Positions 7,647 to 64,000 of a DNA stretch of 64,000 nt are shown here, in pieces. Under the pieces are notes generated by a model. That model did no database searches, was not told the DNA's origin, and worked only from the letters and a program-made list of their open reading frames with translations. The position numbers were made by a program, and so were the translations under genes. Source of the DNA: Escherichia phage vB_EcoM_01; sequence record PP129558. The stretch is one strand, 5' to 3'. Each line of letters starts with the position of its first letter. The stretch's first letter is position 1.

Positions 7647-9671
7647 ATGAATTTAACAAGACCTAATAGTGCGATAGCCGATCTGGTAGAAGCTACTTAT
7701 CGAAAACGTCGCAGCTTTGAGGCAGGTTTTACATTACGTAATTCCCGTGAAGTTTTGCTGTTAGCAGCAGAAGGGAATTATTACCAATGGAAAGGAACTT
7801 TTCCTAAAGTAGTTCCAGCAAACTCTACGCCAGCCACCACAGGTGGTATTTCTTCCCTTGCATGGCAAAGTGTTGGGACCGCTGATGATATAGCAATTAT
7901 CAATGCCAAGTTTACGGCAGTGCAACAACAGATCGATGATTTGTCAGAAGCAATACCTGAAGCTGGTAAATCGGCTTATCAGATCGCACTTGATAATGGT
8001 TTTGTTGGAACAGAAGCACAATGGCTTGCTTCTTTGAAAGGGGATACTGGTGCTCAACTTAATATTAAAGGATCATTAGCAAGCACTAGTGAACTACCAT
8101 CTACAGGTAACGTTGCAGGGGATGGTTATATCGTAGGTGATGTTATTTACGCTTGGGACGGTTCTGTTTGGAAACTTATTTCTTCTCTTGGACCAGAAGG
8201 GAAATCAGCTTACGAGGTATGGTTGGCAGATGGTAATACAGGATCTGTTTATGACTTTCTTGCCTCTATAAAAGGTGATAAAGGAGACGTTGGTCCTACA
8301 GGTCCACAGGGTGCACCTGGTGTCAACGCTAATGGTTTTGATTATCGTGGGGATTTGCCTTCTACAAGTAACTTACCACAACCTAACTCTGAAAACGTAA
8401 GCCAAGCTTATTCTATCAGTGGTAATCTTTATGTCTCCAATGGGACAGCTTGGGTCAACATGGGTAATATTGTTGGTCCTCAAGGTCCACAAGGTGAGGC
8501 AGGTAAAGACGGTCTAGATGGAACAGATGGAGATGAAGGGAAATCTGCATATCAAAGTTGGCTGGATGCTGGTAATGAAGGGACAGAAGTAGATTTTATT
8601 GCCTCGCTTAAAGGTCCAAAAGGAGACAAGGGAGAGCAAGGAGAACGAGGACCACAAGGCGAATTAGGTCCACAAGGACCAGTGGGTGCAACAGGATCAG
8701 GTTTAGAGATTATCGGGGTTCTGAACAGCGAAGCTGAACTTCCTCCGACTGGAGAAGTAGGTGACGCATATAAAATTAATAATGATTTGTATGTTTGGGT
8801 TCAAGATGCTACGGAATGGATGAATGTTGGTAGTCTTGGAGGAACATCAATTACAGCTAAAGGTCATGTTCCGAACAGTGAAGCTCTACCTGTTTACAAT
8901 AACTATGGTGATGCTTACTTAACTGAAGACACTAGTAATCTTTACATCTATACCTACGATCAAGACACCAATTCCGCATCTTTTGTTGACATGGGAAGTA
9001 TTAAAGGCGACAAAGGTGAAAAAGGGGATAAAGGAGATAAGGGTGATCCTGGAACAAACGGAACCAACGGTACTGATGGGACCAACGGTAAGGACGGCGC
9101 ACAGTGGTTTGTAGCAACAACTAATCCAGTCACAGGAGACGGTGTTATCAATGATTACGCCTTCAATACTACTACTGGAGCAGTATTTAAGAAAACAGAT
9201 TCTTCTACGTGGACACTTATAGGAACTCTTCCTAGTATACCAGAAGCCCCTCAAGACGGCTTGACGTATGGTCGTTCTGATGGAAACTGGATCGAAATAT
9301 CAGGATCAGATCCTACGGAAGCTATAACACCAACTAAAGTTACAGCAGGTTTCATGGAACTTGAAACAACTACTGCCAACTCTGGAGCATCTTGGACTCC
9401 TTCTGGAACTTCCAATATGTATGTTGTTACAGTAACTGACGCTCTGACAGTTGGAGCATGGCCTGGTGTCACTGGCTCTACAAAACCTAAAGCGTTTTCA
9501 GCAATGATTTATTTGATTCAAGATACAACGGGACACACGGTTACACTAGATGCGTCTTATGGAGCACTAAATGATACAGAAATAGCAACTACTGCTAACG
9601 CAGTAACAATTTTGCAATTAACGTATCCTGGTGTGGGTGATATCGTGGACATGGTTGTTGTAACACGATAA
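7647..9671 (+). CDS. collagen-like repeat tail fibre protein
   Basis: 674 aa; several Gly-X-Y runs (GPQGPQGEAGKDGLDGTDGDEG; GPKGDKGEQGERGPQGELGPQGPVGATG; GDKGEKGDKGDKGDPGTNGTNGTDGTNGKDG) and three copies of GKSAY(Q/E)..L(D/A)..G..F(L/I)AS(L/I)KG. Confidence 0.8.
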   Translation: MNLTRPNSAIADLVEATYRKRRSFEAGFTLRNSREVLLLAAEGNYYQWKGTFPKVVPANSTPATTGGISSLAWQSVGTADDIAIINAKFTAVQQQIDDLSEAIPEAGKSAYQIALDNGFVGTEAQWLASLKGDTGAQLNIKGSLASTSELPSTGNVAGDGYIVGDVIYAWDGSVWKLISSLGPEGKSAYEVWLADGNTGSVYDFLASIKGDKGDVGPTGPQGAPGVNANGFDYRGDLPSTSNLPQPNSENVSQAYSISGNLYVSNGTAWVNMGNIVGPQGPQGEAGKDGLDGTDGDEGKSAYQSWLDAGNEGTEVDFIASLKGPKGDKGEQGERGPQGELGPQGPVGATGSGLEIIGVLNSEAELPPTGEVGDAYKINNDLYVWVQDATEWMNVGSLGGTSITAKGHVPNSEALPVYNNYGDAYLTEDTSNLYIYTYDQDTNSASFVDMGSIKGDKGEKGDKGDKGDPGTNGTNGTDGTNGKDGAQWFVATTNPVTGDGVINDYAFNTTTGAVFKKTDSSTWTLIGTLPSIPEAPQDGLTYGRSDGNWIEISGSDPTEAITPTKVTAGFMELETTTANSGASWTPSGTSNMYVVTVTDALTVGAWPGVTGSTKPKAFSAMIYLIQDTTGHTVTLDASYGALNDTEIATTANAVTILQLTYPGVGDIVDMVVVTR

Positions 9672-9673
9672 CA

Positions 9674-9700
9674 GAAGCCCCGAAAGGGGCTTTCTTTTTA
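9674..9700 (+). terminator. rho-independent terminator
   Basis: gaagcccc-gaaa-ggggcttt hairpin followed by ctttttat. Confidence 0.65.
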
Positions 9701-9712
9701 TGGAGGGTTTAA

Positions 9713-12385
9713 ATGTTTCCAATTCCAATATTTACTATTATGACCAGCACTGGTGTCGTTCCTCTGCCAGCAGGTATTGTTAAAAAAGTAATCACTTTAG
9801 ATTACCCAGATAATGCTGGCAATTCTAATAGCAGTTTAGCAATTTTGCTTAATGATGGTAGATTGTTTACTCAAGGCGCAAACCTTTTTGGTGAGATTGC
9901 AGATGGAACTCGTAGTGCACGATTCAATAATTTCCACTTAGCTTCTACTGTAGTAGCGGATGTGTTTACCGCAGATCGTTGTTTTGTTATTAAAACTAAC
10001 AGTGGAGGATGGCAATATTCAGGATTGACAGCAGGATTGGTAGGATCTATAGCAGCAGGTGGTACGGACGCATGTGTAACTACTTGGACCAGCTTTCCAT
10101 CTGTAATAACAGGGACTATCTCTTTAGCTAATCTTAAAGAGGTTAAGGGAGGATATAACAATACTCTCTGGTTAATGAATAGTGGTGTTCTTTATGGATC
10201 AGGTCAAAACACAGTAGGTAGTTTAGGTGCAAGTACTACTAACGAAGTTTCTACTCCTCGTCAGATAACAAGTGCAGCAGTTGCTTTTGATGCAGGTTAC
10301 AACCAATGTTCTTATGTCAACAATGTGGGAACCTTGCGTGTTTGTGGAGCCAGTAAAGGTTTAGCAGGTAATAATAACACAACAACAGCTTTTGTCAATG
10401 CCAAGATATCCGCTACTGAAACAGTGTATGTCAAAGATTACATCAATACAGTTTCCCAGACAATAGTTGTAGGAGATACCTCCGGTGGCACGGGTACAGT
10501 AAACTACTTATATGTTAGATCTAATACAGAAACAACCTACACTAAACTGGATACCTTTGCAGCAGGTTTCTCAACATGGAAGTTTCCACCAAGCCGCCAC
10601 TCTTTTTTCGTTGGGATCAATAATTCCTTGTGGGCTATTGGTAAGAACTACACTGCAAACTTAGGTTTGGGGTATGATTCTGCGAGCGGAGATCCACTCC
10701 AAGTGGGAAAACCAGTTAAACCTGAAGGAGTGGGTTCTTGGGATATAAACAAGCTCACAAGCGTTCATACGCTGAATATGGATGTTACTAACCAATTAGG
10801 TTATCAAGGAACCTTTTTCGTTTATAATGGAGATATGTATTATTCCGGTATTTGGAAAGATGGGAAAGCCTCGTATCTGTTCAATAGTGGTCTAAACTAT
10901 AATAAATTCACACCAATAGCAAGCTCCGTGATTACGGGCGATATTCTGGCAACTGGCTTAACTACAGATTCTTTAGGAATTTGTATTGTAGGTGGAACTA
11001 AACAGTTGACACATTCTGTTAGCCCAGAAGGAGGTAAACTTTTCAATATTAAATACACTTCTTCTGCCCCTGCAAACATGACAATATCATCTACTGGTTT
11101 AATGACTTTCCATGCAGAAGGTGGTTTTGATGCAGGTATGACAGCCTTAAACGCTGAAGGAACAACTTTATCAGATACCTCTGGAGGATATGCTTCAACA
11201 TTGAGCGTTTACACTCCTAGCTTATCTGCGATGGATGTAGGAACAACACAAACAATGGTAGCAGAAATAACGCCAACAGGAGCAGCAAGCTTACCTGGTA
11301 TGGTTGTTGAGTATACAACTACAGATCCTAATGTTGCTACAGTAGATCCTACAACTGGTGTAATAACTGGTGTTGGTGATGGTGGTTGTAGAATTGGTTG
11401 CACAGCTACGTATCAAGGTGTTGTTACCGCTTCTGATAGTTCTTATTTAACGGTGAATGCTGTTGCGGGAAAGGAGTTAGCTCCATCTCCGAGTAGTAGC
11501 TTAACGGTTCTAAACGGATATTTCAACCACTCGGCAGATGGGGCAATTACGTTCCCAATTTTATCGGGTACTGTCACACCAGCTAACTTTGTAGTTAAGG
11601 TGGATGACGTTGTAATACCTTCAAATAAAGTAATATTTAGAAATAAAGCTTTCTCTACAGTGGATAGCTATCCAGCAGGAGAATATAGACTGGCTATTGA
11701 ATTTGCAAGTGCTTCAGTAGTTAATAGTGTGGAAGTGTCTATGGAAGCAAACCCAAGTCTTTTAGAACTTTGGGGCGGTAATAGAATCAGTTATTCTACA
11801 AGCCCAGCCTCACAATTCTTAAAAGGTTGTGCTAACTTAAGACGAATAACTTCTGATTGTTTTAGTAACACATCTTACACCGGAACATCTATAAGTGGTA
11901 TCTTCTCTGGCTGTACAAGTTTGACAGCTATCCCTGAAGGTTTATTCAGTGATACTTTATTTCCTTCAATGACAACAATGTCAAGCACGTTTGAAGGTTG
12001 TACATCTTTAACATCTATTCCTTCAGATTTATTTAAGAATCTATCAAAAGTTACAAGATATTCTTACACCTTTAAAGATTGCACGTCTCTTGCAGAAGTT
12101 CCAGCAGGAATGTTTGATAATATTCCAACGAAAGTGACCTCTTTAACAGCTACATTCCAAGGTTGTTTAGCACTTACAGATTTTAATAAAATCTTTAATG
12201 ACAACCCAGGGTTAACTGTTTGTGGTAAACGTGGAGCATTATCTTCTTTCTTTAGTGGATGCACAAATCTTACAGGAACAGGAACAACATTAACAAATAC
12301 ATTAGGCGGAGTAGCTAATAGTTACCTATTCAGGTATTGCACAAAACTTTCTGATTATAACAACATTCCTTCCGGTTATAAATAA
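9713..12385 (+). CDS. large tail fibre/adhesin-like protein with C-terminal leucine-rich repeats
   Basis: 890 aa; repeated F(S/E/K/Q)GCTSLT.IP..LF units in the C-terminal third (BspA-type LRR-like); Ser/Thr/Gly-rich N-terminal two thirds. Confidence 0.7.
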   Translation: MFPIPIFTIMTSTGVVPLPAGIVKKVITLDYPDNAGNSNSSLAILLNDGRLFTQGANLFGEIADGTRSARFNNFHLASTVVADVFTADRCFVIKTNSGGWQYSGLTAGLVGSIAAGGTDACVTTWTSFPSVITGTISLANLKEVKGGYNNTLWLMNSGVLYGSGQNTVGSLGASTTNEVSTPRQITSAAVAFDAGYNQCSYVNNVGTLRVCGASKGLAGNNNTTTAFVNAKISATETVYVKDYINTVSQTIVVGDTSGGTGTVNYLYVRSNTETTYTKLDTFAAGFSTWKFPPSRHSFFVGINNSLWAIGKNYTANLGLGYDSASGDPLQVGKPVKPEGVGSWDINKLTSVHTLNMDVTNQLGYQGTFFVYNGDMYYSGIWKDGKASYLFNSGLNYNKFTPIASSVITGDILATGLTTDSLGICIVGGTKQLTHSVSPEGGKLFNIKYTSSAPANMTISSTGLMTFHAEGGFDAGMTALNAEGTTLSDTSGGYASTLSVYTPSLSAMDVGTTQTMVAEITPTGAASLPGMVVEYTTTDPNVATVDPTTGVITGVGDGGCRIGCTATYQGVVTASDSSYLTVNAVAGKELAPSPSSSLTVLNGYFNHSADGAITFPILSGTVTPANFVVKVDDVVIPSNKVIFRNKAFSTVDSYPAGEYRLAIEFASASVVNSVEVSMEANPSLLELWGGNRISYSTSPASQFLKGCANLRRITSDCFSNTSYTGTSISGIFSGCTSLTAIPEGLFSDTLFPSMTTMSSTFEGCTSLTSIPSDLFKNLSKVTRYSYTFKDCTSLAEVPAGMFDNIPTKVTSLTATFQGCLALTDFNKIFNDNPGLTVCGKRGALSSFFSGCTNLTGTGTTLTNTLGGVANSYLFRYCTKLSDYNNIPSGYK

Positions 12386-51973: not shown

Positions 51974-53146
51974 ATGGCGAAGACGTTAGAACAGTATATA
52001 GGAGAATGTAAACCAATAGCGGAAGCTAAAGGATATGAGATTATAGGGATTGTAGAGCCATTTAAAGNAGGTGTGCACACGAAGATGATCAACTTCTGCC
52101 CTAATCNNNNNNNNNNNNNNNNNNNNNNNNNNNNNNNNNNNNNNNNNNNNNNNNNNNNNNNNNNNNNNNNNNNNNNNNNNNNNNNNNNNNNNNNNNNNNN
52201 NNNNNNNNNNNNNNNNNNNNNNNNNNNNNNNNNNNNNNNNNNNNNNNNNNNNNNNNNNNNNNNNNNNNNNNNNNNNNNNNNNNNNNNNNNNNNNNNNNNN
52301 NNNNNNNNNNNNNNNNNNNNNNNNNNNNNNNNNNNNNNNNNNNNNNNNNNNNNNNNNNNNNNNNNNNNNNNNNNNNNNNNNNNNNNNNNNNNNNNNNNNN
52401 NNNNNNNNNNNNNNNNNNNNNNNNNNNNNNNNNNNNNNNNNNNNNNNNNNNNNNNNNNNNNNNNNNNNNNNNNNNNNNNNNNNNNNNNNNNNNNNNNNNN
52501 NNCTGCCTGCTCTCACGATGAGTATGTGCAAGCTGGGGTGTGTGATGGTAAGTTTTATGTCGCAGGGAATGACCTTAAACAAGGGAAGATTCCTTGCCGT
52601 TGTGCAACTAACTGTCATTACACAGAAGCACAGATTACCTATAGGGTAAAAAAGGCAGTAGAAAGGAAAGGGTATATCTGGGTAGGTTGGATCGGGAAAC
52701 CGTCTGTAAGATTAGGTAAGTTTAAATATGGATGTAAGAAACATGGGGTACAAATAGGACGTGCCAGTGGTTTGTTAAATCATGGTACTGGTTGTCCGCA
52801 ATGTGCTAACCAGACACAACAACAATGTTACATTAACCACATCCATGATGAACAAGGTATTCTCTGTGCTTTGAAATTTGGAATTGCCAATAATAGTGAT
52901 CGCCGTATCAAAAAACAAAATAGTCATAATGTGTTTACTATGAAACAGGTCCAAGTGTGGCACTTCCCTACTGTGAAGCAATGCAAAGATGCAGAGAAGC
53001 GTTGTAAGCGTGTCCTTCACACGGAAGCAGTGAGCAAATATGCTATGCCAGATGGCTACACAGAGACAGTGGAGTTATCTTGCATGGCATCAATACAAAA
53101 CATTTATAAACTTTATGGTGGAACATTACAGGAGGAAACATGTTAG
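51974..53146 (+). CDS. Cys-rich protein (zinc-ribbon motifs), interrupted by gap
   Basis: C-terminal 214 aa after gap has CRCATNC and CPQC; N-terminal 44 aa before gap; internal sequence unknown (52107-52502 N). Confidence 0.4.
   Translation: MAKTLEQYIGECKPIAEAKGYEIIGIVEPFKXGVHTKMINFCPNXXXXXXXXXXXXXXXXXXXXXXXXXXXXXXXXXXXXXXXXXXXXXXXXXXXXXXXXXXXXXXXXXXXXXXXXXXXXXXXXXXXXXXXXXXXXXXXXXXXXXXXXXXXXXXXXXXXXXXXXXXXXXXXXXXXXXACSHDEYVQAGVCDGKFYVAGNDLKQGKIPCRCATNCHYTEAQITYRVKKAVERKGYIWVGWIGKPSVRLGKFKYGCKKHGVQIGRASGLLNHGTGCPQCANQTQQQCYINHIHDEQGILCALKFGIANNSDRRIKKQNSHNVFTMKQVQVWHFPTVKQCKDAEKRCKRVLHTEAVSKYAMPDGYTETVELSCMASIQNIYKLYGGTLQEETC
52107..52502. other. scaffold gap (N-run)
   Basis: 396 n. Confidence 0.95.
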
Positions 53147-53518: not shown

Positions 53519-53698
53519 ATGGCACGTTTAGCAGACCATGAAATCTTTAAACCTATTCTGAACCACTATGATGAACTTAAAGCAGTGTTGGATTGTTATA
53601 GAGAGGATGAAGAACGTTTGGAAGTCAATCTTAAGATAGTTCTGATGAAAGCTTTTCAAGACGGGCAAGCTAAAGTTTTAGAAGGCATGAAAAAATGA
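53519..53698 (+). CDS. hypothetical small protein
   Basis: Start at ATG 53519 with AAGGAGAAA RBS (track ORF begins 53483). Confidence 0.45.
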   Translation: MARLADHEIFKPILNHYDELKAVLDCYREDEERLEVNLKIVLMKAFQDGQAKVLEGMKK

Positions 53699-54237
53699 GA
53701 ATAACTGACGAATATGTATTCTTCTTTTCACATAAAGATGTGTTTAGTAATTGGTATATTGCACCCTTTACAGAAACTGAACCAGGTTACAATGAGACTT
53801 TCTGTTGTGTTGAGCAATATATGATGTGGCGTAAGGCTTTGCTGTTCAAGGATCATGCGATTGCAGCAGCTATCCTTGATCACTCGACTATACGTGACAA
53901 CGAGAGAAAACAAGCATACTACAAACGTATGGGTCGAGCGGTATCTGGTTTTAATAATGATATGTGGGAAGAGAACCGTGAGCGTATTGTTATGCGAGGT
54001 TTATGCTTGAAATATGTACAGAATCCAGATTTGTATGCAGACTTACACCTTTACCAATACAAAACGTTTGTTGAAGCAAGTCCTTACGATAAGGTTTACG
54101 GTATTGGAATGGGAATGTATGAACCAGGGGTGCTAAACCCTGCCACCTGGAAAGGGCAAAATCTTTTAGGTAAATATCATAACAAACTGATCGAAATACT
54201 TTTCCCAGACAAAATACCGCAAAGACGATATTTGTGA
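53695..54237 (+). CDS. NADAR-domain protein (YbiA-like)
   Basis: 180 aa; FFFSHKDVFSNW, EQYMMWRKA, RMGRAVSGF...MWEENRERIVMRGL..KYVQNPDL, EASPYDKVYGIG align block-for-block with E. coli YbiA. Confidence 0.75.
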   Translation: MRITDEYVFFFSHKDVFSNWYIAPFTETEPGYNETFCCVEQYMMWRKALLFKDHAIAAAILDHSTIRDNERKQAYYKRMGRAVSGFNNDMWEENRERIVMRGLCLKYVQNPDLYADLHLYQYKTFVEASPYDKVYGIGMGMYEPGVLNPATWKGQNLLGKYHNKLIEILFPDKIPQRRYL

Positions 54238-54478
54238 TATTTTAACTTTTTTCATTTTTAGAACAAAGGCGTCACTTTGTAGCACAGAAATAAGGCTCCT
54301 ACAGCACCGTAGAGAGCCTGTTATTTTGTCCTATACAAACCCTTGTCTTTTTCAGTTTGCATCACTAGGACTCGATCTGAGTGGGTTCCTGAAGGTCTGC
54401 CAATAAGATTAAAGGTTATCTCAAATTCCCATTACCTATTATCTCAAAAATCCCTCAAATTATTTAAACTTTTTAAGA

Positions 54479-54666
54479 ATTTACAAAAGTGAAAGTTGAA
54501 AACCAAAATTTAAAGTTTAGGAAAATTATCTTAAAATGTCAGATACAAAACAAAACTCAAAAGTCAAGGAAAATTTTAAAAATTTTGCGCGCCCACAGTA
54601 TTTAAAGTTTTTTTGCTTTTACAAAAATGAAAGTACAAAAGCAAAATTTAAAGTTTACAAAAATTT
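54479..54666. repeat. pair of ~45 bp direct repeats (about 88 percent identical) plus recurring tttaaagttt
   Basis: copy 1 at 54479-54526, copy 2 at 54617-54666. Confidence 0.6.
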
Positions 54667-54705
54667 ATGCAGATGGGAATGAGAAGAGTTCTCATATGGA
54701 AATGC

Positions 54706-54784
54706 AAATGATAATGATTCGCATTTAGGTTTATAAATGAGATTGATTCTTATTTGATAAGGTAAATGATAATCATTCTCATTT
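54706..54784. promoter_or_regulatory. two Fur-box-like motifs
   Basis: aaaTGATAATGATTCGCATTt (54706-54726) and aaaTGATAATCATTCTCATTt (54764-54784); resemble Fur box GATAATGATAATCATTATC. Confidence 0.4.
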
Positions 54785-55010
54785 AGAGAATGACGCGCAG
54801 GGGCGGTGTTTGTCTCGCGCTCCCGTGTCCCCTCGCCATGTAATAAGAATAACAGATCCAGCCAGGAAAGCAAGCGATTATTTTATCTTTACATTTCTTT
54901 ACAAATATATAGCGCCCAGCCTACCGGCGATCAACCTTCCAACCAGCGCCCTGGTATGTTAGCCCCGCCTTTACGCCGTGGGGTGGCGCTTCCTCTCCTG
55001 TATGTAAAAC

Positions 55011-55039
55011 AGTATAAGCCCGATCCCTGGGCTTGTCAA
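55011..55039 (-). promoter_or_regulatory. near-consensus sigma70 promoter on minus strand within GC-rich island
   Basis: TTGACA (rc 55034-55039), 17 nt, TATACT (rc 55011-55016). Confidence 0.45.
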
Positions 55040-55041
55040 GA

Positions 55042-55308
55042 TTATTTTTTGTTTTCTTGCCAGGATAGGACACCTAACCAAAAATGCATATCGCCCCGCG
55101 CCCCTGGCGGGATCTTGCTTTCCCCGCCGCCACTGCAAGCCCATAAATAACCATCAGCGAACGGATCAAAATGTTCTATCTCTTCCACTTTATGATCGCC
55201 CAGGTTGAGAACTGTTTCAACCTTTAAGCCCGTTGCGCTTGCTACCTGGTGCACCGTGCCGCCTTGCCAGCCCAATGAGTGCATAAGGTGTAATGTAGTA
55301 TTTGTCAT
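55042..55308 (-). CDS. hypothetical protein (GC-rich island)
   Basis: 88 aa ORF with non-repetitive composition; weak RBS. Confidence 0.3.
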   Translation of the reverse strand: MTNTTLHLMHSLGWQGGTVHQVASATGLKVETVLNLGDHKVEEIEHFDPFADGYLWACSGGGESKIPPGARGDMHFWLGVLSWQENKK

Positions 55309-55495
55309 GGTATCGCCCTTTCTTTGTTGTGCGCCCAGGTTGGCGCGGTAGAAAGATGATAGCCGTTTCCTTCATATATAGCAAGCAAAAAGAAAATAAA
55401 AAAGATTGAAAAAGTGGTTGACGTTCCTCACCTGGTAGCNNNNTANTCNACCGTCCACCAACAAAAAACATCATTCATCACCTGGAGTTAAAATC

Positions 55496-55693
55496 ATGGC
55501 AACATTGCACATTGTGGCGAAAGCAGGACAAATCAGCGTCGTGGTAAACGGTTTTACTGAGTTCAGTCATCCCCAGGATGATCATGAAACGGTTTTATCT
55601 TTCATTGATTCCCTGTTAGAAATGGGAGTCATTACAGAAGACCAGCACGCTACAAAATGCAAGCGCGTTAATCAAATTGCAGGAATAGAATAA
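55496..55693 (+). CDS. hypothetical small protein
   Basis: 65 aa; GGAG RBS. Confidence 0.5.
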   Translation: MATLHIVAKAGQISVVVNGFTEFSHPQDDHETVLSFIDSLLEMGVITEDQHATKCKRVNQIAGIE

Positions 55694-55699
55694 AAAGTA

Positions 55700-55758
55700 T
55701 TGACAACAAACAACAACCTGATAAGATGTATCACATAGGGCGGGAAGTGGTTTCCCGC
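55700..55758 (+). promoter_or_regulatory. promoter plus 5' hairpin module
   Basis: TTGACA-16-TG-a-TAAGAT-gtatcacatag-GGCGGGAA gtggt TTCCCGC. Confidence 0.6.
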
Positions 55759-55783
55759 TCGTAACAGAAGAGAGATTATCATC

Positions 55784-56056
55784 ATGGCATCATATAGCGC
55801 AACAATGATCGTAGCTGGCACCACTGGTAAACCTATGTGCGGTGGCGGATCTTTCGCTAATATCAATATTGACGGGCGTTTATCCCTGGACGCAGCGATC
55901 ACCGTGGCGCGGGAAACATTTAAGAAAGAATGTAAATTCAATAAACAAGATTATCTCGGTTTCGCTATTGAAAAAACCGCGCGCTTTGTTGATTATAAAA
56001 GCCCGAAAATGGTTGATACTACACTAAAAGCGCAAGATGTAGCGTTTTTGCTTTAA
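55784..56056 (+). CDS. hypothetical small protein (array gene)
   Basis: 90 aa; AGAGAGATTATC RBS; preceded by module. Confidence 0.6.
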   Translation: MASYSATMIVAGTTGKPMCGGGSFANINIDGRLSLDAAITVARETFKKECKFNKQDYLGFAIEKTARFVDYKSPKMVDTTLKAQDVAFLL

Positions 56057-57669: not shown

Positions 57670-58035
57670 ATGGCTANNANTNNNAANNNTNNTGNTTATG
57701 CTACCCTGGCTAACACTGCTAAAATTGAACTATCCAGCATTGAAGCGGTACATATTAGCGCCCGTCGCTGGTTTCAAAAGTCTTATGGTAATACTTATTT
57801 CTCTTTGATGGTTGACGTTGAGATCGGCGGTAAACTGATCGAAGTGGTTAACGTTCCGTTTCAATATGGCTATGGGGATCATTTTGATACCGTTGCCCTA
57901 GAAGAGTTTAGCAAGGTTATCAACCTGGAAGGTAAAGAATTTTCAAATTATGCCTACCTTTCCCGTTTTTGCCGTGATAATGGGATCGCTGTATACAGTC
58001 ATGCAAGCGATGTTAAACGTAAAAAAGATTTATAA
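57670..58035 (+). CDS. hypothetical protein (array gene); contains ambiguous bases
   Basis: Start placed at ATG 57670 with AAAAAGG RBS (track begins 57652 inside hairpin); n bases at 57677-57694. Confidence 0.5.
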   Translation: MAXXXXXXXYATLANTAKIELSSIEAVHISARRWFQKSYGNTYFSLMVDVEIGGKLIEVVNVPFQYGYGDHFDTVALEEFSKVINLEGKEFSNYAYLSRFCRDNGIAVYSHASDVKRKKDL

Positions 58036-58773: not shown

Positions 58774-58910
58774 ATGGCTAATATCCGTACACTGTTAAAA
58801 AATGCAAGTCAAGTTTTATTTTCAGATGACGAGTATTTCAACAAAGACATTACAGGCGTGAAAAATTTAAAANGNCNTNNANNANTNTAACGGCGACGAT
58901 GAAGAGTAAT
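58774..58910 (+). CDS. hypothetical small protein (array gene), ambiguous bases near 3' end
   Basis: AGAGAGATTATC RBS; ORF about 45 aa; n bases 58874-58890 make the end uncertain. Confidence 0.35.
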
Positions 58911-59777: not shown

Positions 59778-59889
59778 TTGACACAGATCGCCAGTGTGCT
59801 AATATTTACCACGTAGGGCGGCAATGGNNNNNNNGANACNGATCGCCAGTGTGCTAATATTTACCACGTAGGGCGGCAATGGTGCCGCC
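59778..59889 (+). promoter_or_regulatory. promoter plus 5' hairpin module (duplicated by assembly artifact)
   Basis: TTGACA-16-TAATAT-ttaccacgtag-GGCGGCA atgg TGCCGCC; repeated after n block 59828-59840. Confidence 0.55.
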
Positions 59890-61216: not shown

Positions 61217-62456
61217 ATGAAAGAAGTTATGATCCTCAAAAAATCACCTATTTTACGTGGTGGCTTTATCGCTTACTCTGATGATCTGTTAATTGCAACA
61301 GTTGCAAAAATACTAAAATCAGAAGATGACAGTAAANNNNNNNNNNNNNNNNNNNNNNNNNNNNNNNNNNNNNNNNNNNNNNNNNNNNNNNNNNNNNNNN
61401 NNNNNNNNNNNNNNNNNNNNNNNNNNNNNNNNNNNNNNNNNNNNNNNNNNNNNNNNNNNNNNNNNNNNNNNNNNNNNNNNNNNNNNNNNNNNNNNNNNNN
61501 NNNNNNNNNNNNNNNNNNNNNNNNNNNNNNNNNNNNNNNNNNNNNNNNNNNNNNNNNNNNNNNNNNNNNNNNNNNNNNNNNNNNNNNNNNNNNNNNNNNN
61601 NNNNNNNNNNNNNNNNNNNNNNNNNNNNNNNNNNNNNNNNNNNNNNNNNNNNNNNNNNNNNNNNNNNNNNNNNNNNNNNNNNNNNNNNNNNNNNNNNNNN
61701 NNNNNNNNNNNNNNNNNNNNNNNNNNNNNNNNNNNNNNNNNNNNNNNNNNNNNNNNNNNNNNNNNNNNNNNNNNNNNNNNNNNNNNNNNNNNNNNNNNNN
61801 NNNNNNNNNNNNNNNNNNNNNNNNNNNNNNNNNNNNNNNNNNNNNNNNNNNNNNNNNNNNNNNNNNNNNNNNNNNNNNNNNNNNNNNNNNNNNNNNNNNN
61901 NNNNNNNNNNNNNNNNNNNNNNNNNNNNNNNNNNNNNNNNNNNNNNNNNNNNNNNNNNNNNNNNNNNNNNNNNNNNNNNNNNNNNNNNNNNNNNNNNNNN
62001 NNNNNNNNNNNNNNNNNNNNNNNNNNNNNNNNNNNNNNNNNNNNNNNNNNNNNNNNNNNNNNNNNNNNNNNNNNNNNNNNNNNNNNNNNNNNNNNNNNNN
62101 NNNNNNNNNNNNNNNNNNNNNNNNNNNNNNNNNNNNNNNNNNNNNNNNNNNNNNNNNNNNNNNNNNNNNNNNNNNNNNNNNNNNNNNNNNNNNNNNNNNN
62201 NNNNNNNNNNNNNNNNNNNNNNNNNNNNNNNNNNNNNNNNNNNNNNNNNNNNNNNNNNNNNNNNNNNNNNNNNNNNNNNNNNNGGAAAATTGAATATCGC
62301 GAGATGATCGACGATGAAACGGGGCAGGATTTTAGCGAGTACGTTTATATTCGTTCCGAGACATTAGCCGAACGTTTGATCGAGAAAATGAAAGCAAAAA
62401 ATAAAATTAATTTATCTCATTGGATTGATATAACAAACGATCCAGCTTATCAGTAA
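61217..62456 (+). CDS. coding region interrupted by large gap (one or more genes)
   Basis: N-terminal 40 aa with RBS before gap; C-terminal 57 aa after gap ending at 62456 followed by terminator; 61337-62283 is N. Confidence 0.35.
61337..62283. other. scaffold gap (N-run)
   Basis: 947 n. Confidence 0.95.
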
Positions 62457-62471
62457 ATAACATTTCATACC

Positions 62472-62499
62472 AGGGCGCACAAAGCGCCCTTTCTTTTTG
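62472..62499 (+). terminator. rho-independent terminator
   Basis: agggcgc-acaaa-gcgccct hairpin followed by TTCTTTTTG. Confidence 0.65.
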
Positions 62500-62559
62500 C
62501 CCGAACAATGTTGATAGCTTTCGCCTATGAAAAACCGACACAGAACAAAACTGAATAAA

Positions 62560-63000
62560 TCGCGGTATCGAGCTAATCAACCATTAAACGAATAACCATA
62601 CCTCCCAGGGCAACAGGCTGTTAGAGAGCCATTTATAGCGGTTAAAATCGATCAACAACCAACAACAAACCATCAAAAACACCCTTTTACCTCCTTTCTA
62701 GTGCAATGATAACCATTATCATCTACCCATGATTATCTATGCAATATAAGCGCATAACTATAATGTTGATAATAGTTCGCAACAACTAACTAACCAACAA
62801 CCTAAAACAACAAGCAAACTAATCATAATCAAAGGAATAATAGCAAGATGATTGATAACGACAAACAATAAAACCATGATGAATACTAAGCAAGATAACG
62901 ATAACACGACAAAACAACCAACTAACGAACAATAACAAACGAAACCATTAAAATAATAACTATTAGCAAAATAGTGCCTGAATGAAATCATTACAAAACG
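62560..63000. repeat. strand-asymmetric A+C-rich low-complexity non-coding tract
   Basis: Plus strand dominated by caacaa/aacaa/ataac units, depleted in G and T; no credible ORF. Confidence 0.6.
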
Positions 63001-63023
63001 AATCATTCACAGAGTCATCATTA

Positions 63024-63240
63024 GCACGCTATGCCGGACACATAGCGAGCTAATAATAAGCCAACTACACCCCAACAATCATAACCATCGGTGATGGTTA
63101 TTTCTTGTTACTGCGTAGCTTGCAATAATTGCAAGCGTAATGACGCTTACACTTATTGCGCTGGCTTATTATTAGCATTATATGTAATTACCAAGATCAT
63201 AACATTAGCGCAATAACAATAATCATTGTGGTAATTACAT
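63024..63240. repeat. dense cluster of palindromes and inverted repeats
   Basis: cgctatg/catagcg (63026-63047); 14 bp arms 63049-63062 and 63163-63176; ataaccatcGgtgatggttat (63081-63101); gcttgcaatAattgcaagc (63118-63136); aagcgtaatgacgctt (63133-63148); atgtaattacc/ggtaattacat (63182-63192, 63230-63240). Confidence 0.7.
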
Positions 63241-63448
63241 AAGGAAATAATTAGCAAGATGAATAATTGCACGTAGCAACATGAGCGAATAGCGACAGNN
63301 NNCATAGTGTNNAAACATACAGGAAAATAAAGGCTAATCTTTTGGGGCGAATACTATCGCGTAGCGATATGTTGAGCAAGTTCTCTTAAACGTAAATAAA
63401 ATCAGAAAATTCTTGATTTGTTTTGGTTTTTATGTTAATAAACGTTTA

Positions 63449-63647
63449 AATAATAATCATTCTCATATAAATAATAGTCGGCTTGTCATGAGCGGGATTA
63501 GTTGACAATGTTCCGTCATATGATGAAGTTGCCAAGCCATTGATAAATAAGTGTTTGTGTGATTTATAATCAGGTGGCCCACCTTGTCGCTATGTTGGCA
63601 TGAGCCTTGCATAAGTCATTGAATACGAATGATAATTATTCTCATTC
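63449..63647. promoter_or_regulatory. two further Fur-box-like motifs
   Basis: aATAATAATCATTCTCATa (63449-63469) and aATGATAATTATTCTCATT (63627-63647); same core as 54706-54784. Confidence 0.35.
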
Positions 63648-63714
63648 GCATGATATTTGGGAATTGTCGCTGCGTGGACCTGACGGCCCGAAAATTCGCG
63701 TTAAGCACTTCTTA

Positions 63715-64000
<286 letters not shown>

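Follow-up and report, generated by a model that had tools for sequence, protein, structure and literature searches.

The two direct repeats in the AT-rich spacer that follows the NADAR gene are, as read from the sequence, units 1 and 3 of an old tandem array of three units with a period of ~69 bp, which occupies positions 54459-54677 of the window (the whole stretch of 64,000 nucleotides that was analysed). The window is from a Phapecoctavirus, a phAPEC8-like myophage, and the array forms part of a non-coding region of roughly 0.8-1.1 kb that, on sequence comparison, is a module long kept by a large E. coli-type phage group. In general form, the units probably constitute a protein-binding array. 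The more specific assignment that we place first, as the phased protein-binding sites of a phage replication-start region, is made tentatively and with less than even confidence.

An earlier reading of this DNA (the original prediction) had described two repeats of roughly 45 bp with about 88% identity. The location held, since direct repeats are present at this place in the AT-rich spacer, where segments 54479-54526 and 54617-54664 share 41 of 48 bases at an offset of 138. The identity was 85%, however, and the two ~45 bp repeats gave way to three units of ~69 bp, of which the middle one has decayed. Without gaps, the repeat reaches 72 nt (54456-54527 against 54594-54665; 59/72 identical, 82%; 138 bp apart). 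The top ungapped direct-repeat score within 54440-54680 was 39.5. Dinucleotide-preserving shuffles of the same segment, 300 in number, served as the control and gave a score of 11.0 ± 1.6 with a maximum of 18.5, and none of them reached the score of the real sequence. The repeat is therefore no by-product of AT-richness.

The recurring tttaaagttt element was also recovered, with exact copies at 54509, 54601 and 54647 and one copy with a single mismatch (tttaaacttt) at 54463. Copies of the element fall within two types of box, box A (TTATTTAAAsTTTTT, at 54460 and 54598) and box B (AAAAsCAAAATnTAAAGTTT, at 54499 and 54637). The units are described here on the plus strand. Unit 1 (54459-54527) contains box A TTATTTAAACTTTTT at 54460-54474 and box B AAAACCAAAATTTAAAGTTT at 54499-54518, and unit 3 (54597-54677) contains box A GTATTTAAAGTTTTT at 54598-54612 and box B AAAAGCAAAATTTAAAGTTT at 54637-54656. 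Unit 2 (54528-54596) is degenerate; its box A is gone, and a box-B-like sequence, AAAACAAAACTCAAAAGTCA, is present at 54547-54566, in a weaker third copy of the second half of the repeat (54547-54575). The tail of unit 2, AAAATTTTAAAAATTTT plus GCGCGCCCAC, corresponds to TTTTTTAAAAATTCCCCAG, the unit-2 tail of other genera. Boxes within a unit are 39 bp apart, the box B copies are 48 and 90 bp apart, and the box A copies are 138 bp apart because the middle unit has lost its box A. Two small ORFs over the repeats (54489-54605 and 54627-54728) were considered as genes and rejected, since their likeness follows from the DNA repeat and they have no ribosome-binding site; no counterpart of these ORFs was seen in the diverged repeat units of other genera.

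The original prediction had named absence of the repeats from related genomes as a ground for discarding it, and the repeats proved to be present in relatives. A megablast search with 54200-54900 returned 122 phage records, 66 of which cover at least 80% of the query. The best matches are 98-99.6% identical and come mostly from Phapecoctavirus (phAPEC8, ESCO5, ZCKP1 and others), and the sequence itself is present in many public genomes. Three tandem units lie at the equivalent position in three other Stephanstirmvirinae lineages, Citrobacter phage Tr1, phi92 (Justusliebigvirus) and Klebsiella phage phi1_175008, where they start with TTATTTAAAs(T)TTT and end with AAAAsCAAAATnTAAAGTTT or a close variant. 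Box A starts in these three phages are 67/68 and then 75/76 bp apart, and the distance from the last box A to the first of the palindromes that follow the array is 76 bp, as compared with 78 bp in the window and 73 bp in phiWec188. The second units of Tr1 and phi92 share 75% identity, as compared with 54-59% between the units of Tr1 itself. Several same-numbered units are thus closer between lineages than units are within a genome, indicating that the triplication predates the split of the lineages.

In the Vequintavirinae, loci were read from Seunavirus, Mydovirus, Certrevirus, a Serratia phage and an unclassified contig. Three units were found at the equivalent place, with a period of ~67 bp (range 63-78) and a different box: the units begin with GGTTCTCGATCG or GGGTCTCGATCG and in most lineages end with GAAAAAATTTTT and then G/C. 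W70 has GAGAACTTGAGAGGTTTTTC repeats in place of the GGTTCTCGATCG-type units, and KP13-16 carries two repeats of ~186 bp at the equivalent position. Many of the boxes hold short palindromes (TTTAAA, CTCGATCGAG and GAAAAAATTTTTC). Across the sequences compared from Stephanstirmvirinae and Vequintavirinae, position, unit number and spacing are kept, and the short boxes differ by lineage. A scan of IMG/VR for three box A copies at the right spacing was set aside, as only 2 of its 21 matches were true relatives and the rest were chance matches in AT-rich giant-virus contigs.

The units are close to invariant among near relatives. An alignment of five close Phapecoctavirus genomes shows variation at 2 of the 219 sites of the units (0.9%), as compared with 3.6% of sites in the left spacer, 6.4% in the palindrome array, 2.2% in a GC-rich element further to the right, 15.7% in the NADAR gene and 24% in an 88-aa ORF. 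In phiWec188, which is more distant, the units have diverged at 26% of sites, a level like that of coding DNA, and the boxes and their spacing persist. A genome-wide search for further copies, proposed with the original prediction, returned one locus only: in the complete 149,268-bp genome of ESCO5 the three unit motifs are confined to the array, bar a few scattered and weak matches with 2-3 mismatches. No comparable repeat architecture was found in the other intergenic regions examined. The segment 54440-55480 gave no match in E. coli chromosomes and is therefore not host-derived.

The array sits in a nearly gene-free gap of 1.25 kb, with the NADAR gene (53695-54237) to the left and small plus-strand genes from 55496 to the right. 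The identity of the upstream gene was borne out by a Pfam NADAR domain (E = 3.4e-35). Comparison of the loci shows a module of fixed composition, with the NADAR gene and a terminator, three units, one to six Fur-box-like palindromes, the GC-rich element and a facing sigma-70 promoter. In existing records, this gap is variously annotated with a 'repeat_region', a terminator or small hypothetical ORFs; the small 'hypothetical' ORFs called over the module in many records probably cover non-coding control DNA. At the left border, GATATTT occurs twice on the plus strand (54227-54242), overlapping the NADAR stop codon, and every Stephanstirmvirinae or Vequintavirinae locus that was read has 2-4 copies of the motif at the corresponding place. 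A hairpin, GGCTCCTACAGCACCGTAGAGAGCC, with a T-run follows at 54294-54327 and is annotated as a rho-independent terminator in phAPEC8 and ASO2A; it is the predicted terminator of the NADAR operon and is possibly bidirectional. To the right, unit 3 directly adjoins the first of four Fur-box-like 19-bp palindromes with 29-bp spacing (54678-54783; starts at 54678, 54707, 54736 and 54765), in agreement with the claim that the repeats lie immediately upstream of Fur-like boxes. The site at 54762-54780 matches the Fur consensus GATAATGATAATCATTATC at 16 of 19 positions. The number of palindromes varies from 1 to 6 between lineages, and in ESCO5 they are confined to the module, with 4 copies, and to the terminal region, with 3.

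The GC-rich non-coding element (54787-55010, minus strand) lies downstream of the minus-strand promoter and contains an invariant core of 26 nt, GTTAGCCCCGCCTTTnCGCCGTGGGG. It was found in 231 phage records from both subfamilies, with no match in E. coli chromosomes. Scans of sequence collections recovered it from phage contigs alone (13 of 15 of 142-153 kb, the others of 83 kb and 121 kb), apart from one 4-kb MAG contig. The sigma-70-type promoter, TTGACA-17-TATACT (11/12; 55011-55039, minus strand), points left to the palindromes and the repeats; its hexamers score at least 10/12 in 11 of the 13 lineages scanned, and its spacer sequence varies. Behind it lies the 88-aa ORF (55042-55308, minus strand; phrog_19316), the sole minus-strand gene of the block, for which AlphaFold gave a confident all-helical model (pLDDT 94) with no fold match in the PDB and no Pfam family. 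Its homologues were seen on short contigs and on phage-sized contigs (~140-148 kb), and none in a bacterial chromosomal context. A promoter-like sequence, TTGCTA-17-TATCAT (55356-55384, minus strand), lies upstream of this ORF.

The rightward small-gene block is served by an early promoter, TTGACG-17-TAnTCn (55418-55446, plus strand), at which a promoter is annotated in phAPEC8. It is partly N in the window, where the run at 55440-55449 hits its -10 region; other short N runs between early genes lie at 57677-57695, 58873-58887 and 59828-59840, and longer N blocks at 52107-52502 and 61337-62283. The Phapecoctavirus ETEC-TG is without ~54956-55337; it has thereby lost the 88-aa ORF together with the minus-strand promoter and the invariant core, and its units and palindromes are intact. 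The deletion (530-560 of the ETEC-TG stretch examined) sits at a GCGCCC(T/A)GG microhomology, and the 88-aa ORF's own promoter then abuts the remainder.

The fixed number and spacing of the units, their lineage-specific boxes, their single locus and their near-invariance argue for phased protein-binding sites on double-stranded DNA. The general idea of a binding array in the original prediction is supported by these properties and by the conserved position, whereas its description of the repeats as iteron-like and the label of an origin are not established. We infer that the units would be phased double-strand DNA sites, bound by a protein of the phage that evolves together with its box, and that a host protein on the palindromes, most likely Fur, would form a nucleoprotein complex with the phage protein bound to the units. 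The likeliest job of such a complex would be to mark the start site of phage DNA replication, where a leftward transcript made by the host RNA polymerase may open the AT-rich DNA of the array or prime it. This assignment fits the AT-richness, the promoter that faces the array and the annotation of T7-like replisome genes in ESCO5, among them a primase/helicase and a DNA polymerase I.

The primary origin of T7 consists of the promoters phi1.1A/B and an AT-rich stretch, and oriF and oriG of T4 are likewise transcript-primed. As in these origins, a promoter is directed here at an AT-rich region behind the early region, with the array 330-580 bp downstream, and the likeness to T7 extends to the annotation of T7-like replisome genes in this phage group. 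Unlike those of T7 and T4, the promoter is of the host sigma-70 type, ~330 bp of GC-rich element and palindromes come before the AT-rich DNA, and the AT-rich DNA is itself a phased repeat array. Several observations speak against a replication start: the distance between promoter and array exceeds that in T7, the repeats persist in ETEC-TG, from which the promoter and the invariant core are missing, and the T5 region, the nearest counterpart, bears the annotation of an injection stop signal and not of an origin. The predicted minus-strand RNA would be G-rich, given a plus-strand GC skew of -0.17 to -0.22 over 54800-55200, which is only suggestive of a primer or R-loop at the site; GC skew tracks the direction of transcription, with no origin signal at the array.

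Iteron origins include lambda ori and plasmid origins of the oriV/oriS types, and crr of P4 has 120-bp direct repeats. The array is similar in that direct repeats lie in or beside AT-rich DNA at a single locus, and in that the repeat sequence is lineage-dependent, as would be the case if the binding protein evolved along with it. However, the units measure 67-78 bp, in contrast to iterons of 17-22 bp at a spacing of about two helical turns. No initiator-like gene was found beside the repeats, where the neighbours are the NADAR-domain gene and the gene for the 88-aa protein without family or fold match, and 54200-55500 contains no exact site for DnaA (TTWTNCACA) or IHF (WATCAANNNNTTR). As for the AT-rich unwinding region next to the repeats of an iteron origin, the array is itself the 200-bp stretch of lowest GC in ESCO5 (22.5% vs a mean of 39%) and ranks only about fourth in the genome by nearest-neighbour stability. 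A test for phased A-tract curvature gave no period peak near 10-11 bp in the array. In size and symmetry, lambda iterons are resembled more by the 19-bp palindromes at 29-bp spacing than by the AT-rich units.

Alternatively, the module may be a transcription boundary or control element between the NADAR operon and the terminal small early genes, which we regard as possible but rather unlikely. The units would then serve as weak promoters, as upstream elements or as sites for a phage regulator, and the Fur-like palindromes would work, through host Fur, as a roadblock or operator that limits leftward transcripts, or rightward transcripts born in the units, perhaps by iron status. The position of the module between a terminator and the first early promoter is consistent with such a function, as are the conserved promoter that faces the palindromes and the one box among them that matches the Fur consensus at 16 of 19 positions. 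Units 1 and 3 contain a weak plus-strand promoter-like sequence (TTTACA-18-CAAAAT, 9/12). Each of the two KP13-16 repeats holds a strong one aimed at the Fur-like boxes (TTGACA-17-CATAAT, 11/12, and TGGACA-17-CATAAT, 10/12, at 1147-1175 and 1333-1361 of the stretch examined), and in GEC_vB_MG a minus-strand promoter adjoins the Fur-like box. The promoter-like sites in the units are not conserved among Stephanstirmvirinae, however, and a plain regulator site needs neither three units at a fixed 67-76 bp nor 219 bp of near-invariant sequence.

Control by Fur would also have to be reconciled with the placement of the boxes. The iucA promoter of E. coli aerobactin, a Fur operator, contains GATAATGAGAATCATTAT. 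Like the E. coli operators, the boxes adjoining the repeats match the 19-bp consensus, at best at the 16 positions noted above. In a Fur operator the box lies over the -35/-10 region of a promoter, whereas no recognisable promoter overlaps the palindromes at 54678-54783 except for a 9/12 match on the minus strand, which counts against a control function in the window. The boxes also differ from E. coli operators in standing in arrays of 1-6 in virulent phages, and they are candidate Fur sites. The repeat units themselves are no Fur boxes.

A resemblance to phage T5 was detected at the palindromes. A distant blastn search with 54400-54800 matched the palindrome array to Justusliebigvirus, Certrevirus and many T5-like phages at ~9.3-10 kb, and the matches in T5-like phages lie inside the left terminal repeat. 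In T5 (NC_005859), five boxes at 9552-9715 fall within the feature at 9140-10149 that bears the annotation 'injection stop signal'. Next come TGTGCAAATCCGACA direct repeats (9743-10500), of which we read eight exact or near-exact copies and one partial copy; a major nick is at 9748. Davison counts nine DRD copies in T5 Repeat Region 3, places the first-step-transfer shear point of T5 at about 9618, and mentions neither Fur nor LexA for this region (bioRxiv 10.1101/866236). The boxes and direct repeats of phiR2-01 are arranged as in T5. The T5-type stop-signal region also contains a near-perfect LexA-box-like palindrome, TACTGTATA(A/T)ATATACAGTA (T5 ~9411-9430); in phiR2-01 this occurs twice (2862-2881 and 2963-2982 of the stretch examined), inside 96-nt perfect repeats.

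By analogy, the module could be a counterpart of T5 Repeat Region 3, that is, an end-proximal cis site that pauses DNA entry or delimits the pre-early block, although we consider this unlikely. Both regions have an array of AATGAGAATCATT-type palindromes that blastn can detect, flanked by lineage-specific direct repeats on the side away from the nearest end, so that the order inward from the end is palindromes and then direct repeats, and both lie ~9-10 kb from that end behind small early genes. The physical end of the genome is marked by a direct terminal repeat of 329 bp (63375-63703, mapped from Schickermooser), and position 1 of BME3 maps to 63702 of the window. The module is thereby 8.9-9.25 kb from the right genome end, with the units at 9.0-9.25 kb and only small early genes in between; the distance is 11.6 kb in BME3 and 13.7 kb in Schickermooser, and 9.55-10.5 kb in T5. 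The terminal non-coding region (62470-63715) contains further Fur-like boxes at 62705, 63449 and 63628, and the ESCO5 record begins inside the terminal repeat, at 63628. Beyond the phage sequence, 63769-64000 consists of Nextera mosaic-end and P5 adapter followed by poly-A and poly-G, an untrimmed sequencing artefact.

In T5, the region occupies the inner edge of a 10.2-kb terminal repeat. Here, a long T5-like terminal repeat reaching the module is ruled out by the 329-bp repeat of Schickermooser and the BME3 end. The direct repeats of T5 are 15-bp units with no fixed phase, nine by Davison's count, as against three 69-bp units. T5 has paired DnaA boxes and the genes A1 and A2, neither of which was found here, and a tblastn search of ESCO5 with the T5 left-terminal-repeat proteins (including A1 and A2) gave nothing below E = 0.03. 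T5 is in turn without the GC-rich element, the search for which returned no T5-like matches, and without the facing promoter. Moreover, the phage is contractile-tailed, and two-step transfer is not reported for it. A fuller version, in which the module would be the T5 stop-signal counterpart in rV5/phi92/phAPEC8-like myophages with a block made by host Fur and a phage protein, appears more doubtful still. Such a block, ~9-14 kb from the end, would pause DNA entry according to the iron state of the host, or alternatively would control progress from the terminal pre-early genes to the remaining genome.

It is also improbable, in our judgement, that the repeats act as RNA. A minus-strand transcript of ~700 nt, from ~55004 to ~54290, would carry three U-rich units in its 3' part, which might serve as a sponge, a decoy or a processed repeat RNA. 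The conserved promoter points at the repeats with no strong terminator in between (only a weak hairpin at 54794-54772), and the hairpin at 54294-54318 could stop leftward transcription. Repeat RNA has a precedent in phage, the pseudo-ToxI of phiTE. However, many of the boxes are palindromic and better fit recognition as double-stranded DNA, and a transcript from the promoter would tend to be stopped at the Fur-like sites before it reached the repeats. The GC-rich element may be a non-coding RNA, with weak evidence for structure on both strands: RNAalifold gave ~-22 kcal/mol on either strand with little covariation, and an Rfam search of 53600-56000 on both strands returned nothing meaningful (best match E = 5), so that neither program supports an RNA function. 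Tandem units of a type III antitoxin-like (ToxI) RNA would be ~36 nt and have a ToxN-type toxin that is linked to them or is their target; the units here are 69 nt and no toxin gene is adjacent. The pseudo-ToxI escape locus of phiTE was rejected as a counterpart, being located at 106.7 kb, elsewhere than the module.

A functionless, neutral leftover of local duplication in the AT-rich spacer, to which the decayed middle unit in Phapecoctavirus and the low sequence complexity of the boxes might point, is already strongly disfavoured and very improbable, given that unit number and spacing are kept across two subfamilies, that several same-numbered units are more alike across lineages than units within a genome, and that 0.9% of sites vary as against 16-24% in the adjacent genes.

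Searches of the literature returned no description of the module, of the three-unit array or of Fur-like boxes either in these phages or in the terminal repeat of T5, and no transcriptome for this phage group. The module is a single, deeply conserved and unannotated cis-module with clear parts, each of which can be mutated, in the rV5/phi92/phAPEC8 group of phages that is widely used in phage therapy collections. Through the core of palindromes and repeats that it has in common with T5, the long-standing question of what the T5 injection stop signal is can be addressed directly. If the module were indeed a counterpart of the T5 region with host Fur on its palindromes, a specific host factor could be named for the T5 stop signal, and two-step control would reach beyond the T5-like siphophages.
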